Below, in pieces: positions 8,632-44,620 of a DNA stretch of 46,984 bases. A model generated the notes under the pieces. The model saw nothing but the letters and a program-made list of their open reading frames with translations. It was not told where the DNA came from and ran no database searches. This DNA is from a virus. Location of the stretch: the UHGV virus genome UHGV-0142121, one strand, 5' to 3'. Made by a program: the position numbers and the translations under genes. The stretch's first letter is position 1. The number at the start of each line of letters is the position of its first letter.

Positions 8632-9273
8632 ATGGGACAGAATAAACGTCCATCGCGAGACACAATGTCATCAGTGGTTATACGGGCAACCTTACGGATG
8701 CTCGATGAAACCGGCGGCAGTGTCGCACAATTCTCTACAACGCGCTTGATTCCTGCTCTGGAAGTTCAGGGGCTTGTTGATATGGGGTCTGAAGGCATCA
8801 ATGTCACAGATTACATGCGCTGGCGTAGCCGTTGCATTAAGCGAGCACAGCGCGTCCTGGCTGGCGATACACCGATGCCTGCAGATTGGGTGTTAACGTG
8901 GTTGTCATGTCTTCCGGAAGAGTACCGTAACAAGTGCTCTCAGAAGCTGGCAGCGATGCAGGGCCTGCAATGGGTCCGCATGCCTAAGTACAACCGTATT
9001 CGTGTTGATTCAGTCGACGCTGAAATTGACGAGATTACTGTGAAATTCGGTGCCGTTCTCGCCAACTCAGCGCCAGCCCAGGATGGCGTATACGATGGCA
9101 GTGATGACCAGCACGCCCTGAAGCAGCTGCAGAACCGCCTGTATGAGTTGTCGTCATACCTCTATCGGGAAATCCTGAATATAGAAATGGCCACCGGCAT
9201 TAAACCGGACCACGTTGAACTTGGTGCGCTGAGTCCGCTGGGCCATCAAGCAGGGGGCAAATATGCAGTTTAA
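8632..9273 (+). CDS. Hypothetical early protein, 213 aa (possible regulator)
   Basis: First gene after cro in the same operon; no confident motif. Confidence 0.45.
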   Translation: MGQNKRPSRDTMSSVVIRATLRMLDETGGSVAQFSTTRLIPALEVQGLVDMGSEGINVTDYMRWRSRCIKRAQRVLAGDTPMPADWVLTWLSCLPEEYRNKCSQKLAAMQGLQWVRMPKYNRIRVDSVDAEIDEITVKFGAVLANSAPAQDGVYDGSDDQHALKQLQNRLYELSSYLYREILNIEMATGIKPDHVELGALSPLGHQAGGKYAV

Positions 9274-9928
9274 TTTTGTTCGCAACGAGCTTACTGCAGC
9301 GCTCTTGTCGTTCTCAAAATCTCACCGCAATCAGATCGTCGCGATGGCAGAACGTGCGCCACTGCAGAGCCGATTTACTGCAAAGCCGCAGCGTGAAATT
9401 GATATCGATAACGACACTGTCATTGTCATTGATGCCGAGCCAATCAGCTACAGAGAAGGCAAGCGTTACCATACGAGCATGATCCCGGTATCGCCAGCCA
9501 TTTTTAGCCAGGTGTCATGGCGTAGCGCGTTATTGAAAATGCCTGAGCCGTATAAATCCTGGTTGAATTACTGCTACGGCGATTCAATTTCATTTGAATA
9601 TCAAACAATACTGACAACACATATCTGGCATTCCCTGCTGATTAACCTGGCTGAAAGCAAATCGCCAAAAATGAACGGCAAGACTGAAAGCAACTTAAAA
9701 GCACTTGCCTGGTTGGCTCTACAGGAATCAAAAAATTTCATTAACCGCGGCGAGCTTAAATACAGCCAGGAAGAATTGAGCCAGCTATGTGGTGTGAAAT
9801 ATGACCTATGGCGGAAGAATTATAAAAATCGCTGGGATGTCATGTTGGCCTGCAGTGTTCAAATGGATCGGGAGGCGTTAATACATGTCGACCAATTACG
9901 GAAGAAGCATATCAGCAACAGGCGGTGA
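9263..9928 (+). CDS. Hypothetical early protein, 221 aa (antiterminator Q-like role possible by position only)
   Basis: AGGGGG ribosome-binding site; no confident motif. Confidence 0.45.
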   Translation: MQFNFVRNELTAALLSFSKSHRNQIVAMAERAPLQSRFTAKPQREIDIDNDTVIVIDAEPISYREGKRYHTSMIPVSPAIFSQVSWRSALLKMPEPYKSWLNYCYGDSISFEYQTILTTHIWHSLLINLAESKSPKMNGKTESNLKALAWLALQESKNFINRGELKYSQEELSQLCGVKYDLWRKNYKNRWDVMLACSVQMDREALIHVDQLRKKHISNRR

Positions 9929-10191: not shown

Positions 10192-10209
10192 TTGGGACCA
10201 TGGTCCCAA
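10192..10209. repeat. sopC-like palindrome TTGGGACCATGGTCCCAA (perfect)
   Basis: Perfect 18-bp palindrome in the 12-nt gap between two early genes. Confidence 0.75.
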
Positions 10210-10226
10210 AATCGGATGAGGTAATT

Positions 10227-10445
10227 ATGGCAGATAACCTTTTCGGGAAGAATCGCACTTATCACGATTCTGGTGATTTCACTCATCGCTATTTCTACTT
10301 ATTGCGCGGTTGCGTTCCCCCGCCAGCGAAACGGCAGGCAGAACCCAGCGTGCAGCCAGTAGCAAAGGCAAATACAAAGAGCCAACGTCAGCAAGCCATG
10401 GATAAGGCCAGGGCCAATGCTAATCGTCGTTATAAAGGAAAATAA
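10227..10445 (+). CDS. Hypothetical protein, 72 aa (start moved to ATG 10227; the track start lies inside the palindrome)
   Basis: GAGG ribosome-binding site 7 nt before ATG 10227. Confidence 0.4.
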   Translation: MADNLFGKNRTYHDSGDFTHRYFYLLRGCVPPPAKRQAEPSVQPVAKANTKSQRQQAMDKARANANRRYKGK

Positions 10446-10446
10446 G

Positions 10447-11385
10447 ATGAAAAACTTCCGTTGCGTATTCCCTTACATCAGCAAAACAGCAGTACCCGAA
10501 AACATCAACGAACTACTCATCGAACGTGCGTTTGATGGCCTGTCTGATTGTGAACGTGAGGGTAAAGGCTGGGCCAGAATTGGCGATGAACGCATGCTTA
10601 CTGTTGATGGTAAGTATCTTTTCCGTTATTTCGCCAGCAAGCGCCGTCCTGACCAGCTGGCGGTTCAGCGTTTGCTTAACGAACGTACCGATGAAGTAGT
10701 CGAAGACGGTCGGGAGGTTACTCCGGAACTGATGGAAGAGATGCGCTTCCAGGCTGAGAACGATGTGATGAAGTACTCCCCAATCAGCAGCACAGCGATC
10801 TATATCCTTATGTGGCCAGCGCGCCGCCTTCTGTTGGTTTCTGGCGGAACGGCGTCAAAGTGCGAGGATGCATTGTCATTTTTGCGTAACACGCTGGGTA
10901 ACCTGCATGCGATGCCATGGGGGAATTCACATTTTACCTCCACAGCAGTCACTAAGAATATGACTGAGGGAAATAGCATCTATAAGCTGCCACCTATGCT
11001 GGCTATTTCGCCTTATGGGAAAACGTTATTCACTGGTGAAGACACATCTTTAAAAATCACGCTTGATGGCGTATCGAATGATACTGACGATGCACGGAAT
11101 ATTCTTTCAGGAATGACGGCCCGTTCAGTTGAGATGTCCCTTTATAAACGCCCTGATAATGGGCAAATTGAAAACTTAGCGAATTTCAACCTTGTCATGC
11201 CGCCGAATGGCAACGTCCATTTAAAATCGTTCGATTACGACGATGATATGGAACGTGATGACTTATCGCAGGCATTGATTGCTGAAATGCACCTCGTGAC
11301 TAACTACACACATCAAATTCTATCCGGGCTGGAAGATTTTATCGGCGTGGATCTGGAAGATAATAGCCTCACGCCGCAGGAATAA
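10447..11385 (+). CDS. rdgC: RdgC-like recombination-associated protein, 313 aa
   Basis: Matches my recollection of E. coli RdgC at several blocks (GTASKCEDALSFLRNTLGNL vs [20 protein letters not shown]); start moved to ATG 10447 after AAAGGA. Confidence 0.65.
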   Translation: MKNFRCVFPYISKTAVPENINELLIERAFDGLSDCEREGKGWARIGDERMLTVDGKYLFRYFASKRRPDQLAVQRLLNERTDEVVEDGREVTPELMEEMRFQAENDVMKYSPISSTAIYILMWPARRLLLVSGGTASKCEDALSFLRNTLGNLHAMPWGNSHFTSTAVTKNMTEGNSIYKLPPMLAISPYGKTLFTGEDTSLKITLDGVSNDTDDARNILSGMTARSVEMSLYKRPDNGQIENLANFNLVMPPNGNVHLKSFDYDDDMERDDLSQALIAEMHLVTNYTHQILSGLEDFIGVDLEDNSLTPQE

Positions 11386-11387
11386 AT

Positions 11388-11588
11388 ATGGCATTGGATC
11401 TGTTTATGCAGGGGCCAATGACAGAACAGGAAGCTACGGAGCTGGCAAATAAGTACAAAGCATCAGGACGCCGGGTATCAATAACGGCGTCGTTTCAGCC
11501 AGGTCTTAAATATGTTCAGGTTTATCTGCCAGTCAGCAGATTTCGCCCCAGACAATCAGCGACATATCAACAAAGAATATGGAAATAA
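11388..11588 (+). CDS. Hypothetical protein, 66 aa
   Basis: AGGAA ribosome-binding site; tightly packed in operon. Confidence 0.4.
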   Translation: MALDLFMQGPMTEQEATELANKYKASGRRVSITASFQPGLKYVQVYLPVSRFRPRQSATYQQRIWK

Positions 11589-12514
11589 TGATGGATAATG
11601 CACATAAGACTATTTTACAGCTGTTAATGGCTACATGGCTTAAAAGTGATTTTCGTATTATTGATACGGAAACAACCGGGCTGGAAGATAATGATGAGAT
11701 TATCGAAATCTCGATCATCAATATGCGTGGTGATGTGCTGCTTGATACGCTTGTTAAGCCGACCCGCCCTATCCCCGCAGCTGCGACCGCTATCAACAAC
11801 ATCACCAACGAAATGGTTGCTGATGCCCCATCCTGGCAGGAAGTTTATCCGGCGGTAGTCGCCGCGATTGGTGGCCATAAGTGGCTTGCCTGGAACTCAA
11901 AATTTGATGCCCGGTTGATTACTCAGACCTGCATGATTACTGGCCTTTATAACGATTTGGCACCGGCGGCCATGCTGGAAATGTACAGCAGCATCCATTC
12001 CGGCCATATCGACGCGAAAGAGACTTACAGCCAGTGGTACGGCGCGCTTTCTATGAAGGATAGAAACTTTGTTCGGCAGTCTCTGTCGATGGCAGTAGTT
12101 CAGCAGGGCGTAACGGTCAGTGCTGAAGCTCACCGTTCACTCGCCGACTGCCAGCGCGTTCTCCGCGTACTAGAAAGCGTCTGCAATGATCCACACCTAC
12201 CAGCTGATGGCGCCGACCTTCGCCAAGGTGATGAGTCCGGGCTGGCGCCCTGCCCGTTCTGCTATGGTCCTCCATCGATGTTTGTTCATCACCTGCATGG
12301 CCTCCAGTACAAGCCGTTGTGGAACCCTGCCAACTATGGCGAGGACGGCCTGTATGCCGGCGCCGTTGTTTTCTGTCATGAGTGCGGCGCACATGGCGAA
12401 GAGGCCACCGATGTTGTGTTTGATGATAGCGACGTCGAGCAACTGGAGAACGCCGCCAAAAAGAACTGGAACACGCGCGATAAGCGCCATCAGGACCTTT
12501 ATGAATCCAAATAA
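11579..12514 (+). CDS. DEDDh (DnaQ-like) 3'-5' exonuclease fused to a C-terminal Lar-type zinc ribbon, 311 aa
   Basis: Exo motifs IIDTETTG, LAWNSKFDARL, HRSLADCQ; C-terminus CPFCYG...CHECGAHG...AAKKNWNTR matches the Lar family pattern. Confidence 0.7.
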   Translation: MEIMMDNAHKTILQLLMATWLKSDFRIIDTETTGLEDNDEIIEISIINMRGDVLLDTLVKPTRPIPAAATAINNITNEMVADAPSWQEVYPAVVAAIGGHKWLAWNSKFDARLITQTCMITGLYNDLAPAAMLEMYSSIHSGHIDAKETYSQWYGALSMKDRNFVRQSLSMAVVQQGVTVSAEAHRSLADCQRVLRVLESVCNDPHLPADGADLRQGDESGLAPCPFCYGPPSMFVHHLHGLQYKPLWNPANYGEDGLYAGAVVFCHECGAHGEEATDVVFDDSDVEQLENAAKKNWNTRDKRHQDLYESK

Positions 12515-12527
12515 GCGGGATTAAGTC

Positions 12528-12758
12528 ATGAAGCTGAAAATGAATGCGCCGGATGGTTCCGTGATTGTCGAAAGCAACCTGGTATCTCAGTTCTATCCTG
12601 ATTTCGACAGCGGTGGCGAGCTAACAACAATCGAAACTGTTTCGCCTGATGGGAAAACTTTCTCAGTGAAAGTTAAGCACTCGTTTCATCAGGTCACTAA
12701 CGCGCTGGCGACCGCATGGCGCGTAGATGAGAAGAAAGCCGAAGGAGCAGCCCAATGA
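12528..12758 (+). CDS. Hypothetical protein, 76 aa
   Basis: ORF in operon with ATGA overlap to the next gene. Confidence 0.4.
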   Translation: MKLKMNAPDGSVIVESNLVSQFYPDFDSGGELTTIETVSPDGKTFSVKVKHSFHQVTNALATAWRVDEKKAEGAAQ

Positions 12759-13336
12759 ACGATATCACTGCACTGGCGCAGCGTATGAAGGCGGCAGCAG
12801 AGAAGGCGACACCGGGGAACTATGTTGTAGGCCATAACGACATTAACCGGCATGGGTTGTTGAGCAGTGTATTTGTATGCCAGGAGTACAAGGGGATTGC
12901 TGGCGGTGTTGTAGCTGAATGCCATATGAATTGTCTTACTAAAAATGACGAGCAGGTGTACGCAAATGCAGAATTTTTTGCAGTTACTCACCCAGCCAAC
13001 GTCCTGGCGCTGGTAGAGGCGCTGGAGATGGCGCAGCGTCAAATACAAGCTCATGAGCGTGCTGAATTCACCTGGATGAATGCCCTAGCGCTTCCGGATA
13101 ATGCGTCGCGTATCGACATCCTACCGGCTATTCATGCGGAAAAATATGCACTGCGAGAGGCAACCAAGCGGATTGCTTCGCTGGAGTCCCGCACTGTCAC
13201 CGTGAAGCTGCCTGAGCGTTACTCCTGCGAACTGGGCTACCCTGGCCCCGACCCGGATGGCGAGCTGCTCGACCGTAACGATGTAATCGAAATACTCCGC
13301 GCTGCTGGCATCCAGGTTATCGAAGGAGACGCATGA
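12755..13336 (+). CDS. Ead/Ea22-like protein, 193 aa
   Basis: N-terminus ITALAQRMKAAAEKATPGNY resembles the lambdoid ead/Ea22 family start. Confidence 0.4.
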   Translation: MNDITALAQRMKAAAEKATPGNYVVGHNDINRHGLLSSVFVCQEYKGIAGGVVAECHMNCLTKNDEQVYANAEFFAVTHPANVLALVEALEMAQRQIQAHERAEFTWMNALALPDNASRIDILPAIHAEKYALREATKRIASLESRTVTVKLPERYSCELGYPGPDPDGELLDRNDVIEILRAAGIQVIEGDA

Positions 13337-13587
13337 TGGGTATGAAAAGCATCTGGGATGGGAAAAACCTCCCGCCAGTTGGTTGTCACGTGCTGATTAA
13401 CCTGTCGTCATGCGGGATGCGCGAATATGAGGTTGTCGGGTATGAAGTCAAAAAATCAGTTATTGAAGAGGAACAACGTCCTGGCATGTTCGTTGTGAAC
13501 ATTCTCGTTAAATCGCGTGATGGTAAGGCGACCAATTGTCGGTTCCTGGATGAGGTATTTCCTCTCGACTGGAGGGAAGAACAGTGA
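13333..13587 (+). CDS. Hypothetical protein, 84 aa
   Basis: GAAGGAG ribosome-binding site; ATGA overlap. Confidence 0.45.
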   Translation: MMGMKSIWDGKNLPPVGCHVLINLSSCGMREYEVVGYEVKKSVIEEEQRPGMFVVNILVKSRDGKATNCRFLDEVFPLDWREEQ

Positions 13588-13754
13588 AAATAGTAACTGT
13601 GACGGTAGAAATTGAAGTGCCAGATACCGCGACAAACCAGGATATTCGCGAGTATGTCGATGTTGAATATGGGCAGTGTAACGGTATGAAAGCTGATAAC
13701 CCATGCAAAGACTGCGAGGTTATCTACCACAACTTCACAGTTGAGAAGGATTGA
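13584..13754 (+). CDS. Small hypothetical protein, 56 aa, GTG start overlapping the upstream stop
   Basis: Fills an otherwise unexplained 170-nt gap; GGAGGGAAG upstream; below the 60-aa track cutoff. Confidence 0.25.
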   Translation: MKIVTVTVEIEVPDTATNQDIREYVDVEYGQCNGMKADNPCKDCEVIYHNFTVEKD

Positions 13755-13758
13755 CTCA

Positions 13759-14079
13759 ATGGCAAATAACCAGTTAACAGCCGAGCAACTCGTAACTCTG
13801 CAGCTGCGGATTATGAGCACGCTGTCGTTCTACCAGCAACGCCCGGAGAAAGAAGCCAAGAGGATGGCAGAGCTGCTTATGCTTGCAGGTGCTGCTGCGA
13901 GTGAGCTTCAGGAACACCAGAAAGCCGCTGCTTTGCACTTCCAGCGCGGATACGACGAAGGTCATTCACGCGGCCTGACGTGCGGGAAATTATATAAGGG
14001 CGACGACCAACTGAGGCAGCACCGTGCCGCATGCGTGTCGGCGTACCTGGCAGAAATCAACGGCGGGGAGACCGATTAA
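13759..14079 (+). CDS. Hypothetical protein, 106 aa
   Basis: GAAGGA ribosome-binding site before ATG 13759. Confidence 0.4.
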   Translation: MANNQLTAEQLVTLQLRIMSTLSFYQQRPEKEAKRMAELLMLAGAAASELQEHQKAAALHFQRGYDEGHSRGLTCGKLYKGDDQLRQHRAACVSAYLAEINGGETD

Positions 14080-14619
14080 ATGACTGATGCCCAGTTAACA
14101 GACAAGCGCGCGCGCCTCCGCAAAGCCGCTCAAGACTATCAAACAGCATTATCTTGGTATCAAGAAAACCTCGATAACCCAAACGCGGAACAGGATTGCG
14201 ATGAGGCTGCGGCGGCGTTTAAGCGTGAGATAGCCTATCGAGAAATGGACATTATTTCTGACCTGCTGAATGAGATAGACGAGCTTCATGAACACCTGAA
14301 AGTAGTCGAGCCGGTTGGCGGTGATGAGCTTGACCATCTCATCTGGGGGCTGCAGCGCGAAGGATTCCATGCTCGCACGCTAGCTGCATTGGTAGAGCTA
14401 CGCGAGCGCCGGAAAAGTGACGCCGAATGCCGTTCAGCTGATAGCCTTCACGATCAGCTTTCTCGCCTGGCAACACATTCTGCAGAAGAAAGCGCCCAGA
14501 TGGCAGAATGGGATCGCCCTGCTCCGAAAAGCGCCCTTCGCCAGCAGGCTGAGAAAATTGCCGATGATGTGCAGGAACTAATTAAGCGTTTACCCGACGC
14601 AGATCAGGGGGGCGCATGA
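14080..14619 (+). CDS. Hypothetical protein, 179 aa, predicted helical and acidic
   Basis: GGGGAG ribosome-binding site; TAAATG coupling. Confidence 0.45.
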   Translation: MTDAQLTDKRARLRKAAQDYQTALSWYQENLDNPNAEQDCDEAAAAFKREIAYREMDIISDLLNEIDELHEHLKVVEPVGGDELDHLIWGLQREGFHARTLAALVELRERRKSDAECRSADSLHDQLSRLATHSAEESAQMAEWDRPAPKSALRQQAEKIADDVQELIKRLPDADQGGA

Positions 14620-14852
14620 TAGACCGGAATGTCGTATTGATAAACACATTGACGCGCCGAACAATGGCGAGCGTCACTGCCGGCGGTGATGGTTTCATTT
14701 CTACCGGCACGTTGTCGTTTGATGTTGGCCTGAATACCAGGACTATTCGTCGCATGCTCGATAGCGCAGTAGAGTCGGGCGAAGCTGAGCGCCGTTCTAA
14801 CGGGCCAGGCAAGCCATACAGCTATCGCATTCGGGAGGCGGCATGCTCTTAG
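14616..14852 (+). CDS. Hypothetical protein, 78 aa
   Basis: ATGA coupling; GGGGGG ribosome-binding site. Confidence 0.4.
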   Translation: MIDRNVVLINTLTRRTMASVTAGGDGFISTGTLSFDVGLNTRTIRRMLDSAVESGEAERRSNGPGKPYSYRIREAACS

Positions 14853-15469
14853 ATCATCGCAGCCACACCGCCGCTGAGCATCGAGATACCTGGAGAACTG
14901 ACCCGCGCATAGCCGCGGGCCTTTTTGAGCTATTGCGCCCTTGCCATATTGATGCGTGCGCCAGCGCTGAAAACCATCTTCTGCCGGAGTTCTTTACCCG
15001 CGAAGATAATTGCCTGCAGCTGGACTGGCTGGCTGAAACAAAACGTCGCGGCGTACTGCCAGCGCTTTATGCCAACCCGCCATTCTCGAAAGAGGACAGC
15101 CGAGCGGCTACTCCGCACAATGGCATGGGAAACTTCTTCCGTAAGGCGCGCGTAGAGGCTGAGCAGGGTGTTTATTCTCAATGGCTTTTCCGTGCACGCC
15201 CTGGGGAGAACTGGTTCCCCTGGCAACTAGCCAGCCGCATCTGGTTTATCGTTGGGCGTGTGGGCTTTGTTGATTCTGCCACAGGGAAAATCGACAACGA
15301 GCAGACAGAGAATCATTGTGTAGCCGAATTTATCCCTGGAGAGCATCCGATTCTTGCGGCTGGGCTACCAATAAACCGTGATGACATCCTGGCCGCAGGC
15401 ATGGCTGCAATCAGTTCTGGAAAATATGGATTGATAACAATCCGATACAAACAACTATCGATGAGATAA
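14843..15469 (+). CDS. Phage Dam-like DNA N6-adenine methyltransferase, 208 aa
   Basis: NPPF catalytic motif (YANPPFS) and overall pattern of the phage N6A methyltransferase family; GGAGG ribosome-binding site. Confidence 0.65.
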   Translation: MLLDHRSHTAAEHRDTWRTDPRIAAGLFELLRPCHIDACASAENHLLPEFFTREDNCLQLDWLAETKRRGVLPALYANPPFSKEDSRAATPHNGMGNFFRKARVEAEQGVYSQWLFRARPGENWFPWQLASRIWFIVGRVGFVDSATGKIDNEQTENHCVAEFIPGEHPILAAGLPINRDDILAAGMAAISSGKYGLITIRYKQLSMR

Positions 15470-15491
15470 ATATTTTCAAAATCAGCTTGGA

Positions 15492-15551
15492 AGATCCCCT
15501 TTCTCTATTTACACTGTATAAATAAACAGTATCATCAAGGAAAGGGGATCT
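15492..15551 (+). promoter_or_regulatory. 12-bp inverted repeat (AGATCCCCTTTC / GAAAGGGGATCT) whose 3' arm is the ribosome-binding site of the downstream gene; 36-nt loop carries a LexA box
   Basis: Perfect 12-bp complementarity; 3' arm ends 2 nt before GTG 15554. Confidence 0.5.
15512..15531. promoter_or_regulatory. LexA (SOS) box CACTGTATAAATAAACAGTA
   Basis: CTGT-N8-ACAG with AT-rich spacer, 17/20 to consensus TACTGTATATATATACAGTA; close to my recollection of the E. coli dinI box; overlaps a TATAAA -10-like element. Confidence 0.6.
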
Positions 15552-15553
15552 CG

Positions 15554-15790
15554 GTGAGAGTAGAAATACTTATTGATCAAGAAGCTAAGGTTTCAGAAAA
15601 AGTAATGGCCGCTCTTTCAGAGCAGGTAAAGCAGCGCCTTTCCCCTCAGTTCGAAAAATTCACATTGCGCATAGCAAAGAGCAGTAGCTCTGCGGTGCAG
15701 ATCACCGGCACTAAATCAGCAGATGAGCACAGTGCAGCTATGGACATCTTACAGAGCGTCTGGGAAGACGATAGCTGGCTGCCGGATTAA
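15554..15790 (+). CDS. DinI-like protein, 78 aa
   Basis: Aligns by eye with E. coli DinI (MRVEI..., ITGTKSADEHSAAMDILQSVWEDDSWL vs IGATKEDKQRISEILQETWESADDWF); preceded by a LexA box. Confidence 0.65.
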   Translation: MRVEILIDQEAKVSEKVMAALSEQVKQRLSPQFEKFTLRIAKSSSSAVQITGTKSADEHSAAMDILQSVWEDDSWLPD

Positions 15791-15817
15791 GTAGCTAGGT
15801 TGCAGGAGGTTGAATTG

Positions 15818-16081
15818 ATGACAGACGACACATGCAGTTCTGATTTACTCGCGTTGAAACTACAGCAGCTAAACGCATTGATTCAGGTTGTTCGTCGGAC
15901 GCTGGATAGCAGTGAAGGCAGCATTTATCTGAACGAGGCCATTAATTTAATGGGCGCTGCTGGAGAGATGACTCAAGACTGTGAAGCCATACGAAAGCGG
16001 ATAGATGTTGAGTTGTATCAGCAGAGCAGCAAGTACTACAGCCTGTATGGCTCTAGCTCTGATCGCCAGTCTGCCGGGTGA
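15818..16081 (+). CDS. Hypothetical protein, 87 aa, co-transcribed with the DinI-like gene (candidate antirepressor)
   Basis: AGGAGG ribosome-binding site 8 nt before ATG 15818; role inferred from SOS context only. Confidence 0.4.
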   Translation: MTDDTCSSDLLALKLQQLNALIQVVRRTLDSSEGSIYLNEAINLMGAAGEMTQDCEAIRKRIDVELYQQSSKYYSLYGSSSDRQSAG

Positions 16082-16168
16082 TCCAGATGCTTTGATATGT
16101 CCTATTTCCCAGCCTGTCGATGGCGGATAGGTTGGATATTCCAGGCGTGTTGTGGCGACGCGGATAAA

Positions 16169-16186
16169 TTGGGACCATGGTCCCAA
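16169..16186. repeat. sopC-like palindrome TTGGGACCATGGTCCCAA (perfect)
   Basis: Perfect 18-bp palindrome just upstream of the putative late promoter. Confidence 0.75.
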
Positions 16187-16194
16187 CCTGGAGC

Positions 16195-16283
16195 TTGCAA
16201 AAACTTCACAAAAAAATTAAACTTTTTCTAAGTTGGGTTTTCTGTAACCAGCTTATTCTAACCGCCTTCATGGCGGTTTTTTT
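16195..16283 (+). promoter_or_regulatory. Putative late promoter (TTGCAA ... TAAACT) plus short leader ending in an intrinsic terminator (16261-16283)
   Basis: Promoter-like hexamers followed about 40 nt later by hairpin ACCGCC-TTCAT-GGCGGT and seven T, upstream of the methyltransferase-lysis operon; architecture resembles Q-dependent late promoters. Confidence 0.35.
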
Positions 16284-16419
16284 GTGCCTTGAAAATGGGC
16301 GCTGCAGCATGTGTGACCATGCCACAGCTTTCAGCCCATGCCGCGGGACAGGGTGAAACAAGGCCCATTGCTGATGCGCAACAGCAAAACGAGCCTATCA
16401 AAAAAGGCTGATAAACACC

Positions 16420-17481
16420 ATGGAAAACACTGTAAATATAAACAGTGCCGTTCTTGTGCGTGCTGATACTCTGGCATACATAAAAACTCTCCCGGACAAC
16501 AGTATCGATGCCATCATCACCGACCCGCCCTACTACAAAGTAAAGGCGGCATCGTGGGATAACCAATGGCCGACGGCTGTTGATTATCTGGCATGGCTCG
16601 ATGAGTGCTTGGCGGAATTCTGGCGGGTGCTGAAGCCGGCTGGCTCTCTGTACGTATTCTGCGGTCCTAAGCTGTCATCTGACACAGAACTGCTGATAGG
16701 CGAGCGGTTCAACGTGCTAAACCATATCATCTGGGCCAAACCGAGCGGTCGTTGGAACGGCTGCCGGAAAGAGGATTTGAGATCGTATTTCCCGGCGACT
16801 GAGCACATTGTGTTTGCTGAACATTATGGCTCTGAGGGATTCGCAAAAGGTAATGCCGGGTATGCGACGAAGTGCCGGGAACTGAAAAGCCAGGTCTTTG
16901 CGCCGTTGATTGAATACTTCCGAACTACCCGGCAGCGCTTGGGCATTTCGGCTGCAGAGATCAACGCGGCGACGGGAACCCAAATGTGCAGCCACTGGTT
17001 TAGTTCAAGCCAATGGCAACTGCCCAGCGAAAAACAATACCAGGCTCTTCAGGCGTTGTTTAACCGGGTAGCGAAAGAGAAGCAAACCTCTGGCTTACTG
17101 TCCGACCACGCCGCGCTGGAAGCGGAATACAACGAGTTATCGGAACAGTATTCAGAACTGGTAAAGCAGTACAGCGATTTGCGTGAGCAGTACGAAAACC
17201 TGCGGCGCCCATTCAGGGTAACAAAGGATGTACCGCATACGAACGTCTGGACGTACCCACCAGTTCAGCATTATCCCGGTAAACATCCATGTGAAAAGCC
17301 GATAGAGATGATGATCGATATTATCTCGGCCAGTACTCGACCTGGCGACCTGGTAGCCGACTTCTTCATGGGTTCGGGTGCAACGGTTAAAGCAGCTATG
17401 CAGCTGGGCCGGCGTGCTATCGGCGTTGAGCTGGAAGAGGAGCGCTTCTTACAGACTGTCTCAGAAATTACAGAACTATAA
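16420..17481 (+). CDS. DNA methyltransferase, 353 aa, first gene of the late operon
   Basis: DPPY catalytic motif (IITDPPYY) near the N-terminus and AdoMet-binding FFMGSGAT near the C-terminus. Confidence 0.75.
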   Translation: MENTVNINSAVLVRADTLAYIKTLPDNSIDAIITDPPYYKVKAASWDNQWPTAVDYLAWLDECLAEFWRVLKPAGSLYVFCGPKLSSDTELLIGERFNVLNHIIWAKPSGRWNGCRKEDLRSYFPATEHIVFAEHYGSEGFAKGNAGYATKCRELKSQVFAPLIEYFRTTRQRLGISAAEINAATGTQMCSHWFSSSQWQLPSEKQYQALQALFNRVAKEKQTSGLLSDHAALEAEYNELSEQYSELVKQYSDLREQYENLRRPFRVTKDVPHTNVWTYPPVQHYPGKHPCEKPIEMMIDIISASTRPGDLVADFFMGSGATVKAAMQLGRRAIGVELEEERFLQTVSEITEL

Positions 17482-17485
17482 CCAC

Positions 17486-17508
17486 AGCCCCGCATTGCGG
17501 GGCTTTTT
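17486..17508 (+). terminator. Intrinsic terminator after the methyltransferase gene
   Basis: 8-bp GC-rich stem AGCCCCGC/GCGGGGCT followed by TTTTT. Confidence 0.6.
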
Positions 17509-17539
17509 ATTGCCTGCGCTGCAGGTTTCGGGTTGCGTC

Positions 17540-17851
17540 ATGAACACAGCTATCGAATACGGGAATCCTGATTTATGGCTGGTTTTGCTCATGCTCGCAG
17601 CAGGAGCAATATCCAGCGCCCTGCTCTCTGCCGACCCCATCAATTTAAAGCGCCTTGTAGGTGATGTCCTTCGGGGTGTTCTGGTAGCCATCATCCTCTG
17701 GTCTTACGGCGTGATCGGCGAAATCTCAATTCTAAAAATTATCACTTTGGCCGGACTCGCGTCGGTGGCCTGGCCGCATACGGTCAATGAGGTCACGCGG
17801 TTTGCGGCGCGGACTATCAGCCGTTTATTCGGCGGGAGAAAACAACGATGA
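17540..17851 (+). CDS. Holin, 103 aa, lambda S-like
   Basis: Three hydrophobic segments and a charged C-terminus; pattern resembles lambda S; start taken at ATG 17540. Confidence 0.6.
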   Translation: MNTAIEYGNPDLWLVLLMLAAGAISSALLSADPINLKRLVGDVLRGVLVAIILWSYGVIGEISILKIITLAGLASVAWPHTVNEVTRFAARTISRLFGGRKQR

Positions 17852-18339
17852 ATTACGGACTGATTAGCAAACAGGACGCGGTTCGTTACGCCACGGTTAT
17901 CTGTGACGTGATAGGACACGGTAAAAATAACGCTGCGGTTTCGCTGTGTGTCGAAACGGCAGCAGCAGAAACGCTGCTCGGCGACTTTAAAGATCCGACA
18001 CCAACGAGCGCCGGTACCGGATTGACCCAGGTCGATATCGGTACGTTTGAATGGTTGCGCGATAAGTACCGGAACAGCCGCTATGCGGCCCCTCTTCTTT
18101 CCACGTTTGGCATCGACCTGAGCCGAACGGTTTACCAGGAGCTTCGCACATCACCACTGATGGCGATGCTGTTTTGTCGTTTGCGCTACCTGGCGGTACC
18201 GGAATCTATTCCTGGCACGCGTGAGGCCCGCGCGGACTACTGGAAAAAATACTACAACACCGTCGCCGGCAAAGGTACGCCAGCTGACTATCTCGATAAA
18301 TGTCGCCGCGCTGATGTTGATGCGTTGCTTGGCCAGTGA
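17848..18339 (+). CDS. Putative endolysin, 163 aa
   Basis: Called by position immediately after the holin (ATGA overlap); no confident catalytic motif. Confidence 0.35.
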   Translation: MNYGLISKQDAVRYATVICDVIGHGKNNAAVSLCVETAAAETLLGDFKDPTPTSAGTGLTQVDIGTFEWLRDKYRNSRYAAPLLSTFGIDLSRTVYQELRTSPLMAMLFCRLRYLAVPESIPGTREARADYWKKYYNTVAGKGTPADYLDKCRRADVDALLGQ

Positions 18340-18352
18340 ATGTGAGGTTCCC

Positions 18353-18814
18353 ATGAACAAATTAAAAAGCATTACCCGCGCCTGGGTACTCATGAACGGC
18401 GTGTTCTTCCTGCTGCTGATGGTCACTCGCCCGGTGTTTGCAGCAGATAGCATTGATATCGACTCGCTGATCTCCAGCCTTCCCGCTGGCTGGGCCGGTG
18501 GAGTAACTGCGGTCTTTATTGTGCTCTATGCCATCGCGCAGCTGCGTGCCGTTCTGCCGCCATCGGTAACGGACAAGATCCCCAGCGTCGTGATGATGGT
18601 CCTGGATTTTGTAGCGGCGAATTACAAGCATGCGCGTAATGCCTCAGTCGCTAAGCAGGTTACGGACACGGCAAAAGCCGCTGGCGCCACGGATGATGAA
18701 TACCGCGTTGCAGTTGAAACAGCTAAGAACCGGGGGGAGCTTCGTGGAAGTCGGATTGAGAGTGCTGGCGATTATCCTGGAAATGATCATCCAGGTAGCA
18801 AAGACGCACAGTGA
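18353..18814 (+). CDS. Membrane protein, 153 aa, lysis-associated (possible i-spanin)
   Basis: N-terminal hydrophobic segment; start moved to ATG 18353 after GAGG; position in lysis cassette. Confidence 0.35.
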   Translation: MNKLKSITRAWVLMNGVFFLLLMVTRPVFAADSIDIDSLISSLPAGWAGGVTAVFIVLYAIAQLRAVLPPSVTDKIPSVVMMVLDFVAANYKHARNASVAKQVTDTAKAAGATDDEYRVAVETAKNRGELRGSRIESAGDYPGNDHPGSKDAQ

Positions 18815-19059
18815 AGATGAACGGCAAAAGCGCATTGATTATGCGCGCGACAACCCTGCTGATTATCTGCGTAAGTTTGGGCGCGTGCGGGAACTCGGCT
18901 CAGCTGGTACCGACAATGAAACCGGCACCGTGCGCAGCGGAAAAACCGACGATTGATGTTGCTCATGTGGATGGCTATTTCGTCATCCCGGAGAGCGATA
19001 TGGGGAAGTTAACCGGATATATGGCCGCGCTGGAAGCGGGCTGTATCCCGCCGAAGTAG
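18811..19059 (+). CDS. Lipoprotein, 82 aa (possible o-spanin)
   Basis: Signal peptide with lipobox LGAC; overlaps the stop of the upstream membrane protein. Confidence 0.4.
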   Translation: MKMNGKSALIMRATTLLIICVSLGACGNSAQLVPTMKPAPCAAEKPTIDVAHVDGYFVIPESDMGKLTGYMAALEAGCIPPK

Positions 19060-19066
19060 AGGGAAT

Positions 19067-19333
19067 ATGGCGCTCTTTAAAAGAATGACGAAAGCCGAGA
19101 TACGCCGCCAGTTCACGCATTATGGATTGTTCTGGGGGTGTGTTCCGGTCTACGTCAACATGCGTAACGATGAATGCCCGGATGTGGCCACGCGGAATTG
19201 GGTGCCGGAATGGACACTGGATGCTGCCGATTGGCTATCGGGTATCCCGATTTGGTTCATGACACTGATTAACCCGTATTACGAACCGATGTTTGCCATC
19301 AAATTAACGGCACTGATTGAGGATGACGAATGA
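19067..19333 (+). CDS. Hypothetical protein, 88 aa
   Basis: ORF with ribosome-binding site GAGGGAA; ATGA overlap with the next gene. Confidence 0.4.
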   Translation: MALFKRMTKAEIRRQFTHYGLFWGCVPVYVNMRNDECPDVATRNWVPEWTLDAADWLSGIPIWFMTLINPYYEPMFAIKLTALIEDDE

Positions 19334-19644
19334 AAGTCTACATCGCTGGCCCCATGACAGGCCGTGAGAATTTCAACCGCGAGGCGTTCAACAAAGAAGC
19401 TGAGCGGCTGGCTAAACATGGACATATCGTACTGAACCCCGCCACATTGCCGGCAGGCATGGAGCCGCGCGAGTACATGGATATCTGTTTTGCGATGCTG
19501 CGCTGTGCGGATGCCATGTTGATGCTGCCAGGCTGGCAGGCGTCATCCGGCGCGACCGCTGAGTACCACTACGCGTACAAAATGGATCTGCCGGTCTACA
19601 GCACACTGCATTACCCACCGGTGGCCAGCGAACAGGCTGACTGA
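19330..19644 (+). CDS. DUF4406 / nucleoside 2-deoxyribosyltransferase-like protein, 104 aa
   Basis: N-terminus MKVYIAGPMTG...NPA fits the family signature as I recall it. Confidence 0.5.
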   Translation: MKVYIAGPMTGRENFNREAFNKEAERLAKHGHIVLNPATLPAGMEPREYMDICFAMLRCADAMLMLPGWQASSGATAEYHYAYKMDLPVYSTLHYPPVASEQAD

Positions 19645-19662
19645 TTGGGACCATGGTCCCAA
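19645..19662. repeat. sopC-like palindrome TTGGGACCATGGTCCCAA (perfect)
   Basis: Starts at the base after the upstream stop codon; followed by an intrinsic terminator. Confidence 0.75.
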
Positions 19663-19669
19663 TGAAATG

Positions 19670-19692
19670 AACCACCTTCGGGTGGTTTTTTT
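19670..19692 (+). terminator. Intrinsic terminator closing the lysis operon
   Basis: Stem AACCACC/GGTGGTT with TTCG loop, then TTTTTTT. Confidence 0.65.
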
Positions 19693-22480: not shown

Positions 22481-22498
22481 TTGGGACCACGGTCCCAT
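22481..22498. repeat. sopC-like palindrome TTGGGACCACGGTCCCAT at the terS/terL junction
   Basis: 16-mer TGGGACCACGGTCCCA starts at the base after the terS stop and precedes the terL ATG. Confidence 0.7.
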
Positions 22499-34718: not shown

Positions 34719-34736
34719 TTGGGACCATAGTCCCAA
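34719..34736. repeat. sopC-like palindrome TTGGGACCATAGTCCCAA (one mismatch)
   Basis: Lies between the moron terminator and the gpL ribosome-binding site. Confidence 0.65.
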
Positions 34737-40085: not shown

Positions 40086-41029
40086 TGCCGGAAGGTATTC
40101 TGATTGATTACAACGATGGCCGTCCGATGATGGCAATTACTGCGGGGCTTCGCGCCCCCAGTTTTTGCACAACGTTCTCGGGCTGGTCATCCCAGTCAAT
40201 GCAGTACCCGGTCAATACACCGCTGGTTCCAGGTTCACAGGCTATCGTGGTGCCCACCAATCCCATTTACATCTATTCCTTTGCTGAATTTGATGTGGCC
40301 ATTATGACGAGCGTCACCCGAAACGGGGACGCCGGGGTCATCATTGGTGCAGAGACCATCGGGGGTAAGGCCCTCACTCCGGACTGGTCTGGTTATGTTA
40401 TGGAGCTGCTGCCTGCGGCGACGTATAACGAAGGATTACTGGTTTCAAACTCGACTGACTTCACCGCCATATCTAATCAGGCTGCGCTGATGACCTGCGC
40501 TTATTCCGGACGTATTACGGTTAGCGGCAGCGCGCCGCTTCCGGTGAGCGGTATTCCTTTCGGCAAATGGGATAACCCGAATGTGTCGGTGGGGTTTGAT
40601 GGCACCAGTATCATCGTGCGCGACATTTCCTATACAGGGCGGGACGACGTGGCCGGAACGGCGACGATAGACCTGGTGATATTCAATCAGACCGCACCTG
40701 TCGGCGGCGACGGTATCACGATGACCAACGCTGCAGGCCAGGTCACGTTCTCCACGCTGAAACGCCCCTTTGTCTATGACCGACAAATCCAGATCACCGA
40801 TGCCTTCCAGGATATTGGCGGTGGGTTCTGCCAGATAGTCTATACCGGCGTTCAGGTACGAATGATAGGTGGATGGGGAAATATCAGAACCAAAGGCGTC
40901 GTCATGTCAGGCGGTAGTGTCAGGTCAGCCTACAACAAAGTGTTTGCGGACCGCAATTCTGGTGCATGGGATATGACCCGTAACAGAAATATCGCCATGC
41001 CCATTCTAATTCTTCCGAATATGTACTGA
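40085..41029 (+). CDS. Hypothetical tail-associated protein, 314 aa
   Basis: GGGAGG ribosome-binding site; TAATG overlap with J stop; between J and tail fibre. Confidence 0.4.
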   Translation: MPEGILIDYNDGRPMMAITAGLRAPSFCTTFSGWSSQSMQYPVNTPLVPGSQAIVVPTNPIYIYSFAEFDVAIMTSVTRNGDAGVIIGAETIGGKALTPDWSGYVMELLPAATYNEGLLVSNSTDFTAISNQAALMTCAYSGRITVSGSAPLPVSGIPFGKWDNPNVSVGFDGTSIIVRDISYTGRDDVAGTATIDLVIFNQTAPVGGDGITMTNAAGQVTFSTLKRPFVYDRQIQITDAFQDIGGGFCQIVYTGVQVRMIGGWGNIRTKGVVMSGGSVRSAYNKVFADRNSGAWDMTRNRNIAMPILILPNMY

Positions 41030-41038
41030 GGAAAAACT

Positions 41039-42397
41039 ATGTCAGCAGGAACCTTAACCCTGACGAATAACTCTGCTGCGGTCGCTGGTAGCGGGACCGC
41101 GTTTACTACCGAGGTGGCGGCCGGAGATTTTATTGTTGTCACTGTCGGCGGCGTTCCCTATACACTCCCGATTAAATCAGTGGAAAGCGGTACAGCATTG
41201 ACGCTGGTCAGCAATTTCACCGGGCCAACACAGTCTGGCGCTGCCTGGTTTGCTGTTCCGCGCGTGGCGCTTAATATGGTTACCGCGGCGCTGGTGACTC
41301 AAAGCGCGGAGGCACTGCGCGGACTGAACTACGATAAGCAGAACTGGCAGCAGTTTTTTACTGCCGATGGTGATGTAACGATTGCGCTTCCTGATACCAG
41401 CCAGACAACGGGGCCATCAGCGAAAAAGTTAATTAAAAGTGTTAACGATAAAGCAGATAAAACAGCGCTTGATGAGTACGCCAAAAAGGGCAGCAACAGC
41501 GATATCACGAGTCTTTCCGGCCTAACTACTGCCCTAAGTGTTAAGCAGGGCGGGACAGGAGGTGACAATAAGACTGGCGCATGTAAAGGTATAGGTGCCA
41601 TGAATGCGGAATTGTCGGTGCCTAATGCCTCGGCGATAGCCCTGCCATCTGGATCGTTCTTCCTGGGTGATGGTCAGGAGGCTGGAGGGGCAGGTAAGCC
41701 ATTCACCTATTCGATGATTCTGCAATTATCTGCTGGTGGCGCAAGTCCTACAGGAGACTGGGTGCAGGTGGCATATCAGATGTTTGGTACCGGCGCTCCG
41801 AAATACCGAACACGTGTTGATTCTCCACCATCTCTGTCTAACTGGTTCGACTTCCTTGTCCGTGGAGTAAATACTACGGTGGACTCCAATGGATTCTACA
41901 AAACTTCATCGCCGATTATTAAAATTTGGGGGGATGGGACCTCTGAATTAAACGATGAGTCCGAAGGGGCAACCGTTGTCCGAATGGATACAGGGGTTTA
42001 TAAAGTATCTGGCGTCATGGGGTTTAACTCCAGTCCGGAGTGGGGAGGCGTGGAGGGCGGATATTCAGTACCGCAAAACGGCAACGGGCTGCCTCTGTTG
42101 TGGCTGGATTACGAAATAGCATCTGATGGTGATATTACAGTCCGAACGTATCATCGTACACACAGTAATGCGCCAGAATTTGCCCGAAACCTGATTGGTA
42201 TTAAACATGACGATGGTTCATTTACCGAAACGGTTAAAGATGGCGACCCGGTGGATATCCCGGCTGGTCGCTGGATAGATCTGCGCGTTGAGATGCCCCA
42301 CAACAGCATCTGGAATATTAAACAGATCGAGGCACAGGAAGCCAGAGAAAAAGCTGAGCGCGAGCGCCAGGAAAATCAGCAGGATGCCCAGTTGTAA
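41039..42397 (+). CDS. Tail fibre protein, 452 aa
   Basis: Position after J; Gly/Ser/Thr-rich with KQGGTGG motif; C-terminal coiled-coil tail. Confidence 0.6.
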   Translation: MSAGTLTLTNNSAAVAGSGTAFTTEVAAGDFIVVTVGGVPYTLPIKSVESGTALTLVSNFTGPTQSGAAWFAVPRVALNMVTAALVTQSAEALRGLNYDKQNWQQFFTADGDVTIALPDTSQTTGPSAKKLIKSVNDKADKTALDEYAKKGSNSDITSLSGLTTALSVKQGGTGGDNKTGACKGIGAMNAELSVPNASAIALPSGSFFLGDGQEAGGAGKPFTYSMILQLSAGGASPTGDWVQVAYQMFGTGAPKYRTRVDSPPSLSNWFDFLVRGVNTTVDSNGFYKTSSPIIKIWGDGTSELNDESEGATVVRMDTGVYKVSGVMGFNSSPEWGGVEGGYSVPQNGNGLPLLWLDYEIASDGDITVRTYHRTHSNAPEFARNLIGIKHDDGSFTETVKDGDPVDIPAGRWIDLRVEMPHNSIWNIKQIEAQEAREKAERERQENQQDAQL

Positions 42398-43438: not shown

Positions 43439-44620
43439 TCAAAGGACGTAGCGCTTTGCTATTTCGTTACCTATTTTTTGAATCCGCTGGTCTTCAGTGG
43501 TTTCATCATTTAGTACGGTTCTGGCGAACGGGATTAGGGCCAGAATTTCGTTGGCGGGGATATCGTATTTCAAGCCTGTCGCCGCGGCGCGGATGTAGTT
43601 GGTCACATCATTAATTTCTAAAAATGCCTCATCCACTACCTTACCAACCGATTTTTGCTGTTCGGCCTGGTGAGCTTCCAGTAGTTCTTCAATCCTCTGT
43701 ACTAACGCTGGCGATACGTTGCTAAGTTGGAAGGATACAGAATCCCCCTTGTACTTCGCTTTCATCCCTTTACCAAACAGGCGCTCACGCACTGCAGGTT
43801 TTACTGGCTTTTGCGCTACCTGGTGCAGCTGGTCAAGAATGTCATCAGTTTCGAGCTGTTCACCAGCGCGCTTGCGCTTGGCCAGATGCTGCGCAAACGC
43901 AAACATTGCATCTTCATTCTCGGCATAGACTTTTGCCAGTGCCTCACCAGCTCTGGCGCTCAGCTCGTTAGGGTTACGGAAAAGGCCAATGATTTCGCGT
44001 GGTAGCTCTGCCGTCTTCATGCAGCGGACGATAATTTTTCGGGAGATATTCTCCGCTTCGGCCAGCTTACTGACGGTACCACCGAACTCATTAGCCAGGC
44101 GGCGAGCATAGCGTTTTCCGCGTTCGTAAGAGCTGGTCTGCCGGTAGTCGTTCCCGATCTGTGATAGCCAGGCCATTTGTTCGTCGTCCAGCTCGCCGAC
44201 GAGAACGCGGTATTCAGAGCTGGTGTAAATGGCTGTCTGGCGGCGGCGGCTACCGTCGGCCACTTCAATGATGCCAGAAATTTTGCGGCCAAAAGCTGGG
44301 TTTTGTTGCCCGGATGCGAGGAATGATGGGATCAGGTCATCCAGGGCGTCTTTTGTCAGTAGAGCCTGGTCCCGCTCGTTGCCGCCCCATACCATGGTCG
44401 CCTTTTCCACCATGTTTGCATCGACGGTTTCCAGCTTAAACGACACATCCCGCCCACAGACCGGAAGGGTGATATGGTTCCCGGTCATCCCGCGGACGCG
44501 TTCGCTTAGGTTTGCCACCGCCGGCGCCGCTGGTTTATGCGCTTCATCATGTCGTGGGACCGCGGTCACAGTGTCCAGATTAATTTGCGGAGCGTTTTTC
44601 ATTACAGGCGCGCGTTTCAT
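43439..44620 (-). CDS. sopB: Partition protein SopB (ParB family), about 393 aa from ATG 44620
   Basis: N-terminal 230 aa closely match my recollection of F SopB (ITLPVCGRDV, NERDQ, DALDDLIPSF, RVLVGELDDEQMA, AENISRKII); start overlaps sopA stop (ATGA). Confidence 0.85.
   Translation of the reverse strand: MKRAPVMKNAPQINLDTVTAVPRHDEAHKPAAPAVANLSERVRGMTGNHITLPVCGRDVSFKLETVDANMVEKATMVWGGNERDQALLTKDALDDLIPSFLASGQQNPAFGRKISGIIEVADGSRRRQTAIYTSSEYRVLVGELDDEQMAWLSQIGNDYRQTSSYERGKRYARRLANEFGGTVSKLAEAENISRKIIVRCMKTAELPREIIGLFRNPNELSARAGEALAKVYAENEDAMFAFAQHLAKRKRAGEQLETDDILDQLHQVAQKPVKPAVRERLFGKGMKAKYKGDSVSFQLSNVSPALVQRIEELLEAHQAEQQKSVGKVVDEAFLEINDVTNYIRAAATGLKYDIPANEILALIPFARTVLNDETTEDQRIQKIGNEIAKRYVL
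44555..44570. repeat. Degenerate sopC-like site TGGGACCGCGGTCACA inside sopB 5' coding region (one mismatch)
   Basis: 15 of 16 match to the palindrome core. Confidence 0.3.

Follow-up and report, generated by a model that had tools for sequence, protein, structure and literature searches.

A putative late-operon control cassette beside a SopB centromere box in an N15-family telomere phage-plasmid

The region upstream of the late methylase gene carries annotated control elements in two telomere phages. In phiKO2 (AY374448, 45384-45510), the GenBank features run from a 'putative plasmid partitioning site' through the -35 and -10 elements of a 'putative late promoter' to a terminator, with the methylase gene 52 next in line. 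The N15 record (NC_001901) annotates a -35, a -10 and a stem-loop at 41162-41250, upstream of the methylase, and within this late region (41125-41250) the SopB palindrome IR3 (41125-41140) lies just upstream of the promoter. The IR3 oligonucleotide is tabulated in PMC7205306, and the site has been used experimentally by Lane's group. The title of a study by Ravin, Rech & Lane (2008) states that Sop facilitates N15 late expression; partition-protein input into late transcription, which an earlier note on the DNA analysed here described as reported for N15, is on record in the form of that title. A third telomere phage, PY54, has the corresponding sequence at ~40974-41120 of its GenBank record (AJ564013), which carries no promoter, terminator or box annotation. 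The juxtaposition of box, promoter and terminator is thus already known, having been annotated for phiKO2 in 2004 and studied in N15, with the idea published in 2008, and the locus described here is an ordinary new example that brings comparative detail and no new principle. Our additions are a two-class structure of the module, the lineage-specific position and sequence of the box, identification of the correct Q gene, and candidates for the pause and Q-binding elements. For the genome itself, the late switch is placed and the true antiterminator gene is identified.

We analysed a stretch of 46,984 nt, virus genome UHGV-0142121 (hereafter the window). Judged by its genes, the window is a linear plasmid-prophage of the N15 family of telomere phage-plasmids: the telN, repA, cB, Q and sopAB gene set is present, with a protelomerase-sized ORF at 213-2114 and a RepA-sized ORF of 1333 aa, and there are also genes for a CI-type repressor, a Dam-type methylase and terminase. 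Its closest matches in the databases are to the telomere phages phiKO2 and PY54, and to linear-plasmid kin from Klebsiella and Salmonella. DNA identity to these is only ~71-76%, over parts of the region, in a sensitive blastn search; megablast of a 901-bp region against phages gave zero matches, and the relatives surfaced with the more sensitive blastn. From these searches, the window appears to be a member of the N15 family that has yet to be described, or that is at any rate missing from the collections searched. Its centromere-binding protein is encoded by sopB on the minus strand (43439-44620), contains the SopB HTH domain (PF18090), and is 61% identical to PY54 SpyB and 56% identical to N15 SopB. 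The longest sopB ORF, 43439-44704 (minus strand, 421 aa), overlaps sopA; given that homologue alignments begin at residue 29 of this long ORF, the true start is probably the Met at 44620. The ParA-type partition ATPase gene, sopA (44617-45828, minus strand; PF13614 and PF01656), encodes a protein 84% identical to PY54 SpyA and 72% identical to N15 SopA.

A perfect 18-bp palindrome, TTGGGACCATGGTCCCAA, occupies positions 16169-16186, with a 16-bp core at 16170-16185. Sites matching the core pattern with up to three mismatches occur 11 times in the window (2125, 6737, 6993, 10193, 16170, 19646, 22482, 28197, 34720, 38696 and 44555), four of them perfect, as compared with 0.16 expected from shuffled sequences; the box is therefore a genuine repeated site and no chance palindrome. 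These boxes are single and dispersed, the closest pair being 256 bp apart, in contrast to the F-plasmid sopC, a tandem array of 43-bp repeats that each contain a box. The half-site of the window box, GGGACC, is of the F and PY54 type and differs from the N15 half-site, GCGACC (compare TGGGACCATGGTCCCA in the window with TGCGACCATGGTCGCA in N15). N15 has four boxes as against the 11 box-like sites of the window, and PY54 also has 11. Apart from the half-site sequence, the window shares with the dispersed Sop sites of N15 a repeated inverted repeat, a cognate sopAB, and positional orthology to IR3 and IR2, the latter position being occupied by a perfect box just past the Q operon (10193-10208). 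We conclude that, as far as sequence comparison can tell, the box at 16169-16186 is a dispersed SopB centromere site and the positional equivalent of N15 IR3.

Several other boxes have counterparts elsewhere in the family. The window and PY54 share box positions after telN, twice inside repA, after the Q operon, at the terS/terL junction, and at the 5′ end of sopB; the last of these lies inside the gene (44555 in the window, 22251 in PY54) and might have a role in autoregulation. A second perfect box, at 19646, begins 1 bp past the stop codon of a DUF4406-type gene and is followed by an intrinsic terminator at 19670-19692 (AACCACC-TTCG-GGTGGTT and seven T); this pairing of box and terminator (19646-19692) is likewise annotated in phiKO2. 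Similarity to the Salmonella linear plasmid pAR-0403 starts at the box under study (16167) and stops ~24 bp short of the box at 19646. The boxes appear to bound an exchangeable module (16167-19622), and may serve as recombination joints.

Next to the box, on the plus strand, lies a putative late promoter with the -35 hexamer TTGCAA (16195-16200), a 17-nt spacer, AAACTTCACAAAAAAAT (16201-16217), and the -10 hexamer TAAACT (16218-16223). The -35 aligns with its annotated counterpart in N15 and phiKO2 (TTGGCA), and the -10 with the annotated TATCTT of N15 and TATCGT of phiKO2. Transcription would probably start near A16230, 7 nt past the -10, from a sigma-70 promoter; relative to this predicted start, the centre of the box is near -52.5. 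The gap between box and -35 is 9 bp when counted from the 16-bp core, which bears out the earlier description of a perfect palindrome at that distance, and 8 bp when counted from the 18-bp palindrome. A strong intrinsic terminator of canonical form, the equivalent of tR', follows at 16260-16283 (plus strand). It consists of the stem-loop AACCGCC-TTCAT-GGCGGTT at 16260-16278, with a 7-bp stem and a 5-nt loop, and a run of seven T that ends at 16283. The stem begins 36 nt past the -10, in agreement with the distance of about 40 nt given in the earlier note; box, promoter-like sequence and terminator all lie where that note placed them.

The promoter matches the consensus at only 8 of 12 positions, which is below the threshold of our scan, so it was not called. 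Considered on its own it would be a weak and insignificant match; what gives it credibility is the register conserved among its relatives. We sampled 80 viral loci encoding the methylase and 44 pattern hits on viral contigs, from which L194 and L200 were dropped as GC-rich chance matches, and obtained about 25 distinct versions of the module. When these were stacked without gaps on a near-invariant block, TTTTTCTAAGTTGG (16223-16236 in the window), the -35, the 17-nt spacer, the -10, the block and the terminator shared one register throughout. N15, PY54 and the window have identical copies of the block, and other relatives differ from it by one or two substitutions. The -35 of relatives reads TTGCAA, TTGCTA, TTGCCA or TTGATA and the -10 reads TATCAT or TAAAAT, with T-12, A-11 and T-7 kept in every relative. 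Similarly, the terminator stem AACCGCC/GGCGGTT is invariant and its loop variable. Genes upstream of the module differ among the relatives that share it, and the box forms its conserved upstream edge.

The modules fall into two classes. Class A includes N15, phiKO2 and most of the Klebsiella elements; class B includes the window, PY54, Salmonella pAR-0403 and others. In class A, the box reads GTGCGACCryGGTCGCAy and is separated by an A-rich linker of 19-20 bp from the -35 TTGGCA, and the -10 is TATC(G/T)T. In class B, the box reads wTGGGACCAyGGTCCCAm, the linker is 8 bp, the -35 is TTGCwA, and the -10 is TATCAT, TAAAAT or TAAACT. Box core (GGTCSC) and block are separated by 52-53 nt in class A (15 distinct sequences), a variation of 1 bp, and by 41 nt in class B (five distinct sequences). 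The 8-bp linkers of class B have almost wholly diverged (CCTGGAGC, TTCATCAC, TTTAATGG, TTTCATCG, TTTTTTCA and others), and despite this divergence their length is constant in all but one case.

The class B module of the window recurs in PY54 and pAR-0403, which have the identical 18-bp box, the 8-bp linker, TTGCAA, the 17-nt spacer, the block and the terminator. With N15 the window shares an order of features made up of a SopB palindrome, the -35, the 17-nt spacing, the -10, the block, a leader of ~55 nt, the AACCGCC..GGCGGTT stem with seven T, a conserved leader RNA and the methylase, as well as homologous sopAB and a Q gene several kb upstream with a box beside it; however, the distance from box to -35 is 8-9 bp in the window and ~20 bp in N15, which places the box centres at -52.5 and -64.5, respectively, and the spacer sequences differ. 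phiKO2 shows the same juxtaposition upstream of a methylase (gp52) that is 80% identical to that of the window, but it belongs to class A in box, spacing and Q type.

Box sequence, box-promoter distance, spacer sequence and Q clade differ together between the two classes. Moreover, promoter class tracks Q clade wherever a single viral contig supplied both the Q locus and the module: this is the case for the class B pairs L014/L089, L027/L086, L193/L087 and PY54, and for at least six contigs in which a class A promoter accompanies an N15-type Q. The pairing fits a Q-binding element located in the spacer, but common descent would be expected to produce it as well. The two classes may simply correspond to two lineages, and both their joint change and the fixed spacing of class A could then stem from shared ancestry and not from constraint. 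Throughout the family, a partition site occupies a fixed position next to the promoter, in one of two matched versions, and these offer a comparative design for studying the effects of ParB-type complexes on transcription.

At lambda PR', the sequence AACGAT, then GGG, begins at +1. In the window, TAAGTT is followed by GGG at 16229-16237 (plus strand), approximately -1 to +8, in the near-invariant block. The hexamer lies 5 nt past the -10, a lambda-like distance, as compared with 11-12 nt in the 82-type loci examined. Among relatives it varies only as TA[A/T/C]GTT, so that the equivalents of T-12, A-11 and T-7, the bases of greatest weight for sigma region 2, are constant and the third position is variable, and the GGG after it is usually GGGA. 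By analogy with lambda and phage 82, TAAGTT and GGG are likely to form a sigma-dependent pause element, and the class-specific 17-nt spacer is likely to be the Q-binding element. The window spacer is similar to the TTGCAAAA..ACAAAA spacers found in the late promoters of lambdoid Q82-family loci; in those loci, this spacer, the -10, a leader of ~55 nt and the terminator come directly after Q. The likeness to the lambdoid cassettes (lambda PR'-tR' with its 6S RNA, and the 82-type PR') extends to the putative promoter, the promoter-proximal pause element (a candidate in the window), the predicted short terminated RNA, the late genes beyond the terminator, and, for the 82 type, a Q of the Q82 family. 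Unlike those cassettes, the window has its Q gene 6.3 kb from the target and not adjacent to it, and a partition site abuts its promoter. We also considered TAAGTT as the real -10. This would require TTCACA and an 18-nt spacer in the window, and neither N15 nor phiKO2 offers a -35 to go with it; the annotated register was therefore preferred and the candidate rejected.

The antiterminator gene Q is at 9263-9928 (plus strand). Its product matches PF06323 (E = 3.9e-42) and phrog_304 and belongs to the Q82 family, one of three unrelated families of Q proteins (PMC9388147). The earlier note had proposed the genes of 8632-9928 as antiterminator candidates; this stands for 9263-9928, whereas the product of 8632-9273 matches a CII-like activator (phrog_4834), lacks a Pfam Q domain, and was set aside. 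A search with the single Q protein gave one relative, and an alignment-based search was then used; a PDB sequence search with the window Q found no structure. The window Q is 40% identical to PY54 Q and 28% identical to N15 gp40 and phiKO2 Q, which are 70% identical to each other. From the end of Q (9928) to the promoter (16195) is 6.3 kb, and the same separation is seen in N15, phiKO2 and PY54. Of the features by which Q cassettes have been recognised (PMC9388147), the window has the Q-family gene and a terminator shortly downstream of the putative promoter with late genes behind it, the methylase, the gp53-55 homologues and terminase all following on the same strand; Q does not lie directly upstream of the regulated unit. 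Given that lambdoid Q82-family loci have the same geometry directly after Q, the arrangement reads as a Q cassette whose Q gene has been shifted 6.3 kb away. In nearly all of the telomere-phage Q loci examined, a box of the matching type lies ~240-300 bp past the Q match, L089 being the one clear exception.

Since the same order of features is annotated in front of the orthologous methylase genes of phiKO2 and N15, we interpret the region as the cassette that controls the late operon of an N15-family telomere phage-plasmid, the box being an IR3-type centromere site, and assign this reading a probability of about 0.75. The Q-type late promoter with a terminated leader proposed in the earlier note accordingly finds support in the positionally orthologous annotations of phiKO2 and N15 and in the Q82-family gene. 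We infer the following sequence of events. RNA synthesis would begin near A16230 from the sigma-70 promoter (-35 at 16195-16200, -10 at 16218-16223). Without an antiterminator, polymerase would halt at 16260-16283 and free a two-hairpin RNA of ~53 nt. The Q82-family protein encoded at 9263-9928 would load onto polymerase at the late promoter, via the spacer, during the pause at TAAGTT and GGG, and the Q-loaded polymerase would then read through into the methylase, the genes in the lysis position and the virion genes. In this scheme, a SopB complex on the box at 16169-16186 and the box at 10193-10208 would probably influence late transcription, as reported for N15; whether SopB has a real effect on late transcription in the phage of the window is a separate matter, and we put that at slightly less than an even chance. 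The presence of a box after Q in nearly all Q loci fits the N15 report (by its title) that Sop facilitates late expression.

A stronger proposal makes the SopB box a functional component of the late promoter, under constraint and no bystander. Together with the Q-side box, it would allow the partition complex to bridge 6 kb and thereby deliver Q to a promoter that, in telomere phages, has been displaced from the Q gene. Bridging of the Q-side and promoter-side boxes by SopB would fit their paired conservation, a speculative link, and we consider this proposal unlikely. Lambda Q acts preferentially in cis. If the proposal is true, a segregation complex doubles as a long-range, enhancer-like device for antitermination, and the two module types would be interchangeable units within which the specificity of the box, its position and the specificity of Q evolved together.

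Other explanations give the box less to do, or a different task. It could be only a centromere site that is tolerated in the intergenic gap beside a genuine late cassette, with no effect on transcription. Consistent with this, seven of the 11 boxes are in intergenic gaps or gene junctions unrelated to promoters (such as those after telN at 2125, at terS/terL at 22482, and at 34720), the boxes of PY54 are scattered likewise, boxes coincide with mosaic boundaries, and a scan of 14000-19000 called no promoter near the box at 16170, whose own promoter is sub-threshold. Against this, the box keeps its distance from the -35 while the linker sequence diverges, it delimits the module on the upstream side whichever genes precede it, a box recurs beside Q in nearly all family members examined, and the N15 report speaks in its title of facilitation of late expression by Sop. 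We regard an inert box as possible, if on balance doubtful. SopB at -52.5 could, alternatively, repress or insulate the late promoter in the lysogen, by occlusion of an UP element or of alpha-CTD, by spreading silencing, or by blocking polymerase arriving from upstream. The class B box covers -44 to -61, where class A has an A-rich, UP-like tract between box and -35, and no terminator was found in the stretch that separates the end of the upstream antirepressor-like gene (16081) from the box. Gene silencing by the SopB of F and spreading by P1 ParB are established phenomena. A SopB silencing assay was used in PMC7205306. Nevertheless, the N15 study speaks in its title of facilitation and not of repression, and the terminator already holds the late genes off, such that additional repression seems less needed; we judge a repressive role to be improbable.

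The remaining alternative concerns the promoter itself. The hairpin at 16260-16283 might mainly terminate transcription of the upstream early genes (10417-16081), in which case the promoter would be a chance match in AT-rich sequence and late transcription would start elsewhere. The match of just 8 of 12 positions is in keeping with this, as are the upstream genes, which run in the same direction and have no other terminator, and the frequency of terminator-like sites in the region (15 found, 4.7 expected). Against it stand a module register that is constant in about 25 distinct relatives with differing upstream genes, the better -10, TATCAT, carried by close relatives, and the same geometry directly downstream of Q in lambdoid Q82-family loci. 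We consider this alternative very improbable, and retain the late-operon control cassette as the preferred reading.

The predicted leader RNA (16230-16286) folds with -19.5 kcal/mol (z = -4.67), and none of 200 shuffled sequences folds as well. Its 5′ hairpin (AAGUUGG/CCAGCUU; 16230-16254, plus strand) pairs 16230-16236 with 16248-16254, so that bases of the pause candidate double as its 5′ arm. A hairpin is predicted in all 16 of the relatives tested, with GGG/CCA replaced by GGC/GCU in PY54-type sequences. With the terminator as its second hairpin, the terminated product would be a two-hairpin RNA of ~52-55 nt (about 53). Small RNAs are known to arise from prophage late promoters: IsrK comes from the Gifsy-1 late promoter, and StxS of Stx phages is likewise derived from PR'. 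The window leader resembles both as a short terminated transcript from a prophage late promoter, and is predicted to form a two-hairpin RNA; its Rfam match to isrK (16210-16283, plus strand) is sub-threshold, at 13.3 bits and E = 1.8, and is probably due to chance. At the gathering score, Rfam gave no matches in the region, and a cut-off of E ≤ 10 gave noise only (isrK, and Hrs1 on the opposite strand).

The first gene past the terminator encodes a DNA N6-adenine methyltransferase (16420-17481, plus strand; PF01555), 80% identical to phiKO2 gp52 and 75% identical to PY54 gene 60. The genes after it are homologues of phiKO2 gp53-55, the first being holin-like by its membrane segments. Thus, the methyltransferase-holin-lysis operon of the earlier note holds for the methylase, the gp53-55 homologues and the holin-like character of the first of them, but no profile library calls any of these homologues a holin or a lysin.

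Between the terminator and the methylase start codon, and hence in the read-through transcript, lies a conserved structured leader RNA of ~130 nt (16290-16419, plus strand). A search with nhmmer found it in 91 fetched loci, many of them lambdoid prophages, far beyond the telomere phages (for example, L127 2588-2724, L038 2366-2503 and L166 ~2755-2888). A copy is present in a prophage of E. coli Nissle 1917, where nothing is annotated on the element, and Rfam 15 gave no match. The leader is always directly upstream of the methylase family or of a Com-like zinc-ribbon ORF of 38-48 aa that precedes the methylase. In a structure drawn by hand, an invariant helix, UGGGC/GCCCA, closes a three-way junction, which is followed by a further hairpin. 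We built a covariance model from this structure and used it to align 48 sequences. In this alignment, which is fitted to the model and so favours the structure, 84.7% of cells pair, as compared with 28-42% when the partners are slid; the covariation score, subject to the same fitting, is 0.453 as compared with at most 0.09, and 31 of 35 pairs have changed on both sides. With RNAalifold and a plain MAFFT alignment, the invariant long-range helix was the only part recovered. In the lambdoid versions, an alternative fold buries the ribosome-binding site. From this modelling, the element looks like an undescribed cis-regulatory leader of the phage late methylase, and may be a new element in the translational control of a SAM-dependent methylase.

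The zinc-ribbon ORF between leader and methylase was seen at L037 2340-2465, L059 2319-2435, L071 2340-2465 and L081 1802-1948. It has weak Pfam matches, including one to Zn_ribbon_Com (E = 0.0065), and its arrangement with the methylase recalls the com-mom pair of Mu. In PY54 (L084, 41121-41136), the methylase leader has as its first hairpin a degenerate SopB box, TGGGACCGTGGTCACA; the window equivalent, TGTGACCATGCCACA, is much weaker. Two entries in the N15 record are likely to be annotation slips: the stem-loop at 45560-45584, a 'putative rho-independent terminator', coincides with the SopB palindrome IR4, and the start of gene 52 is annotated at 41621, whereas the alignment of relatives and the RNA model put the conserved start codon at ~41387.
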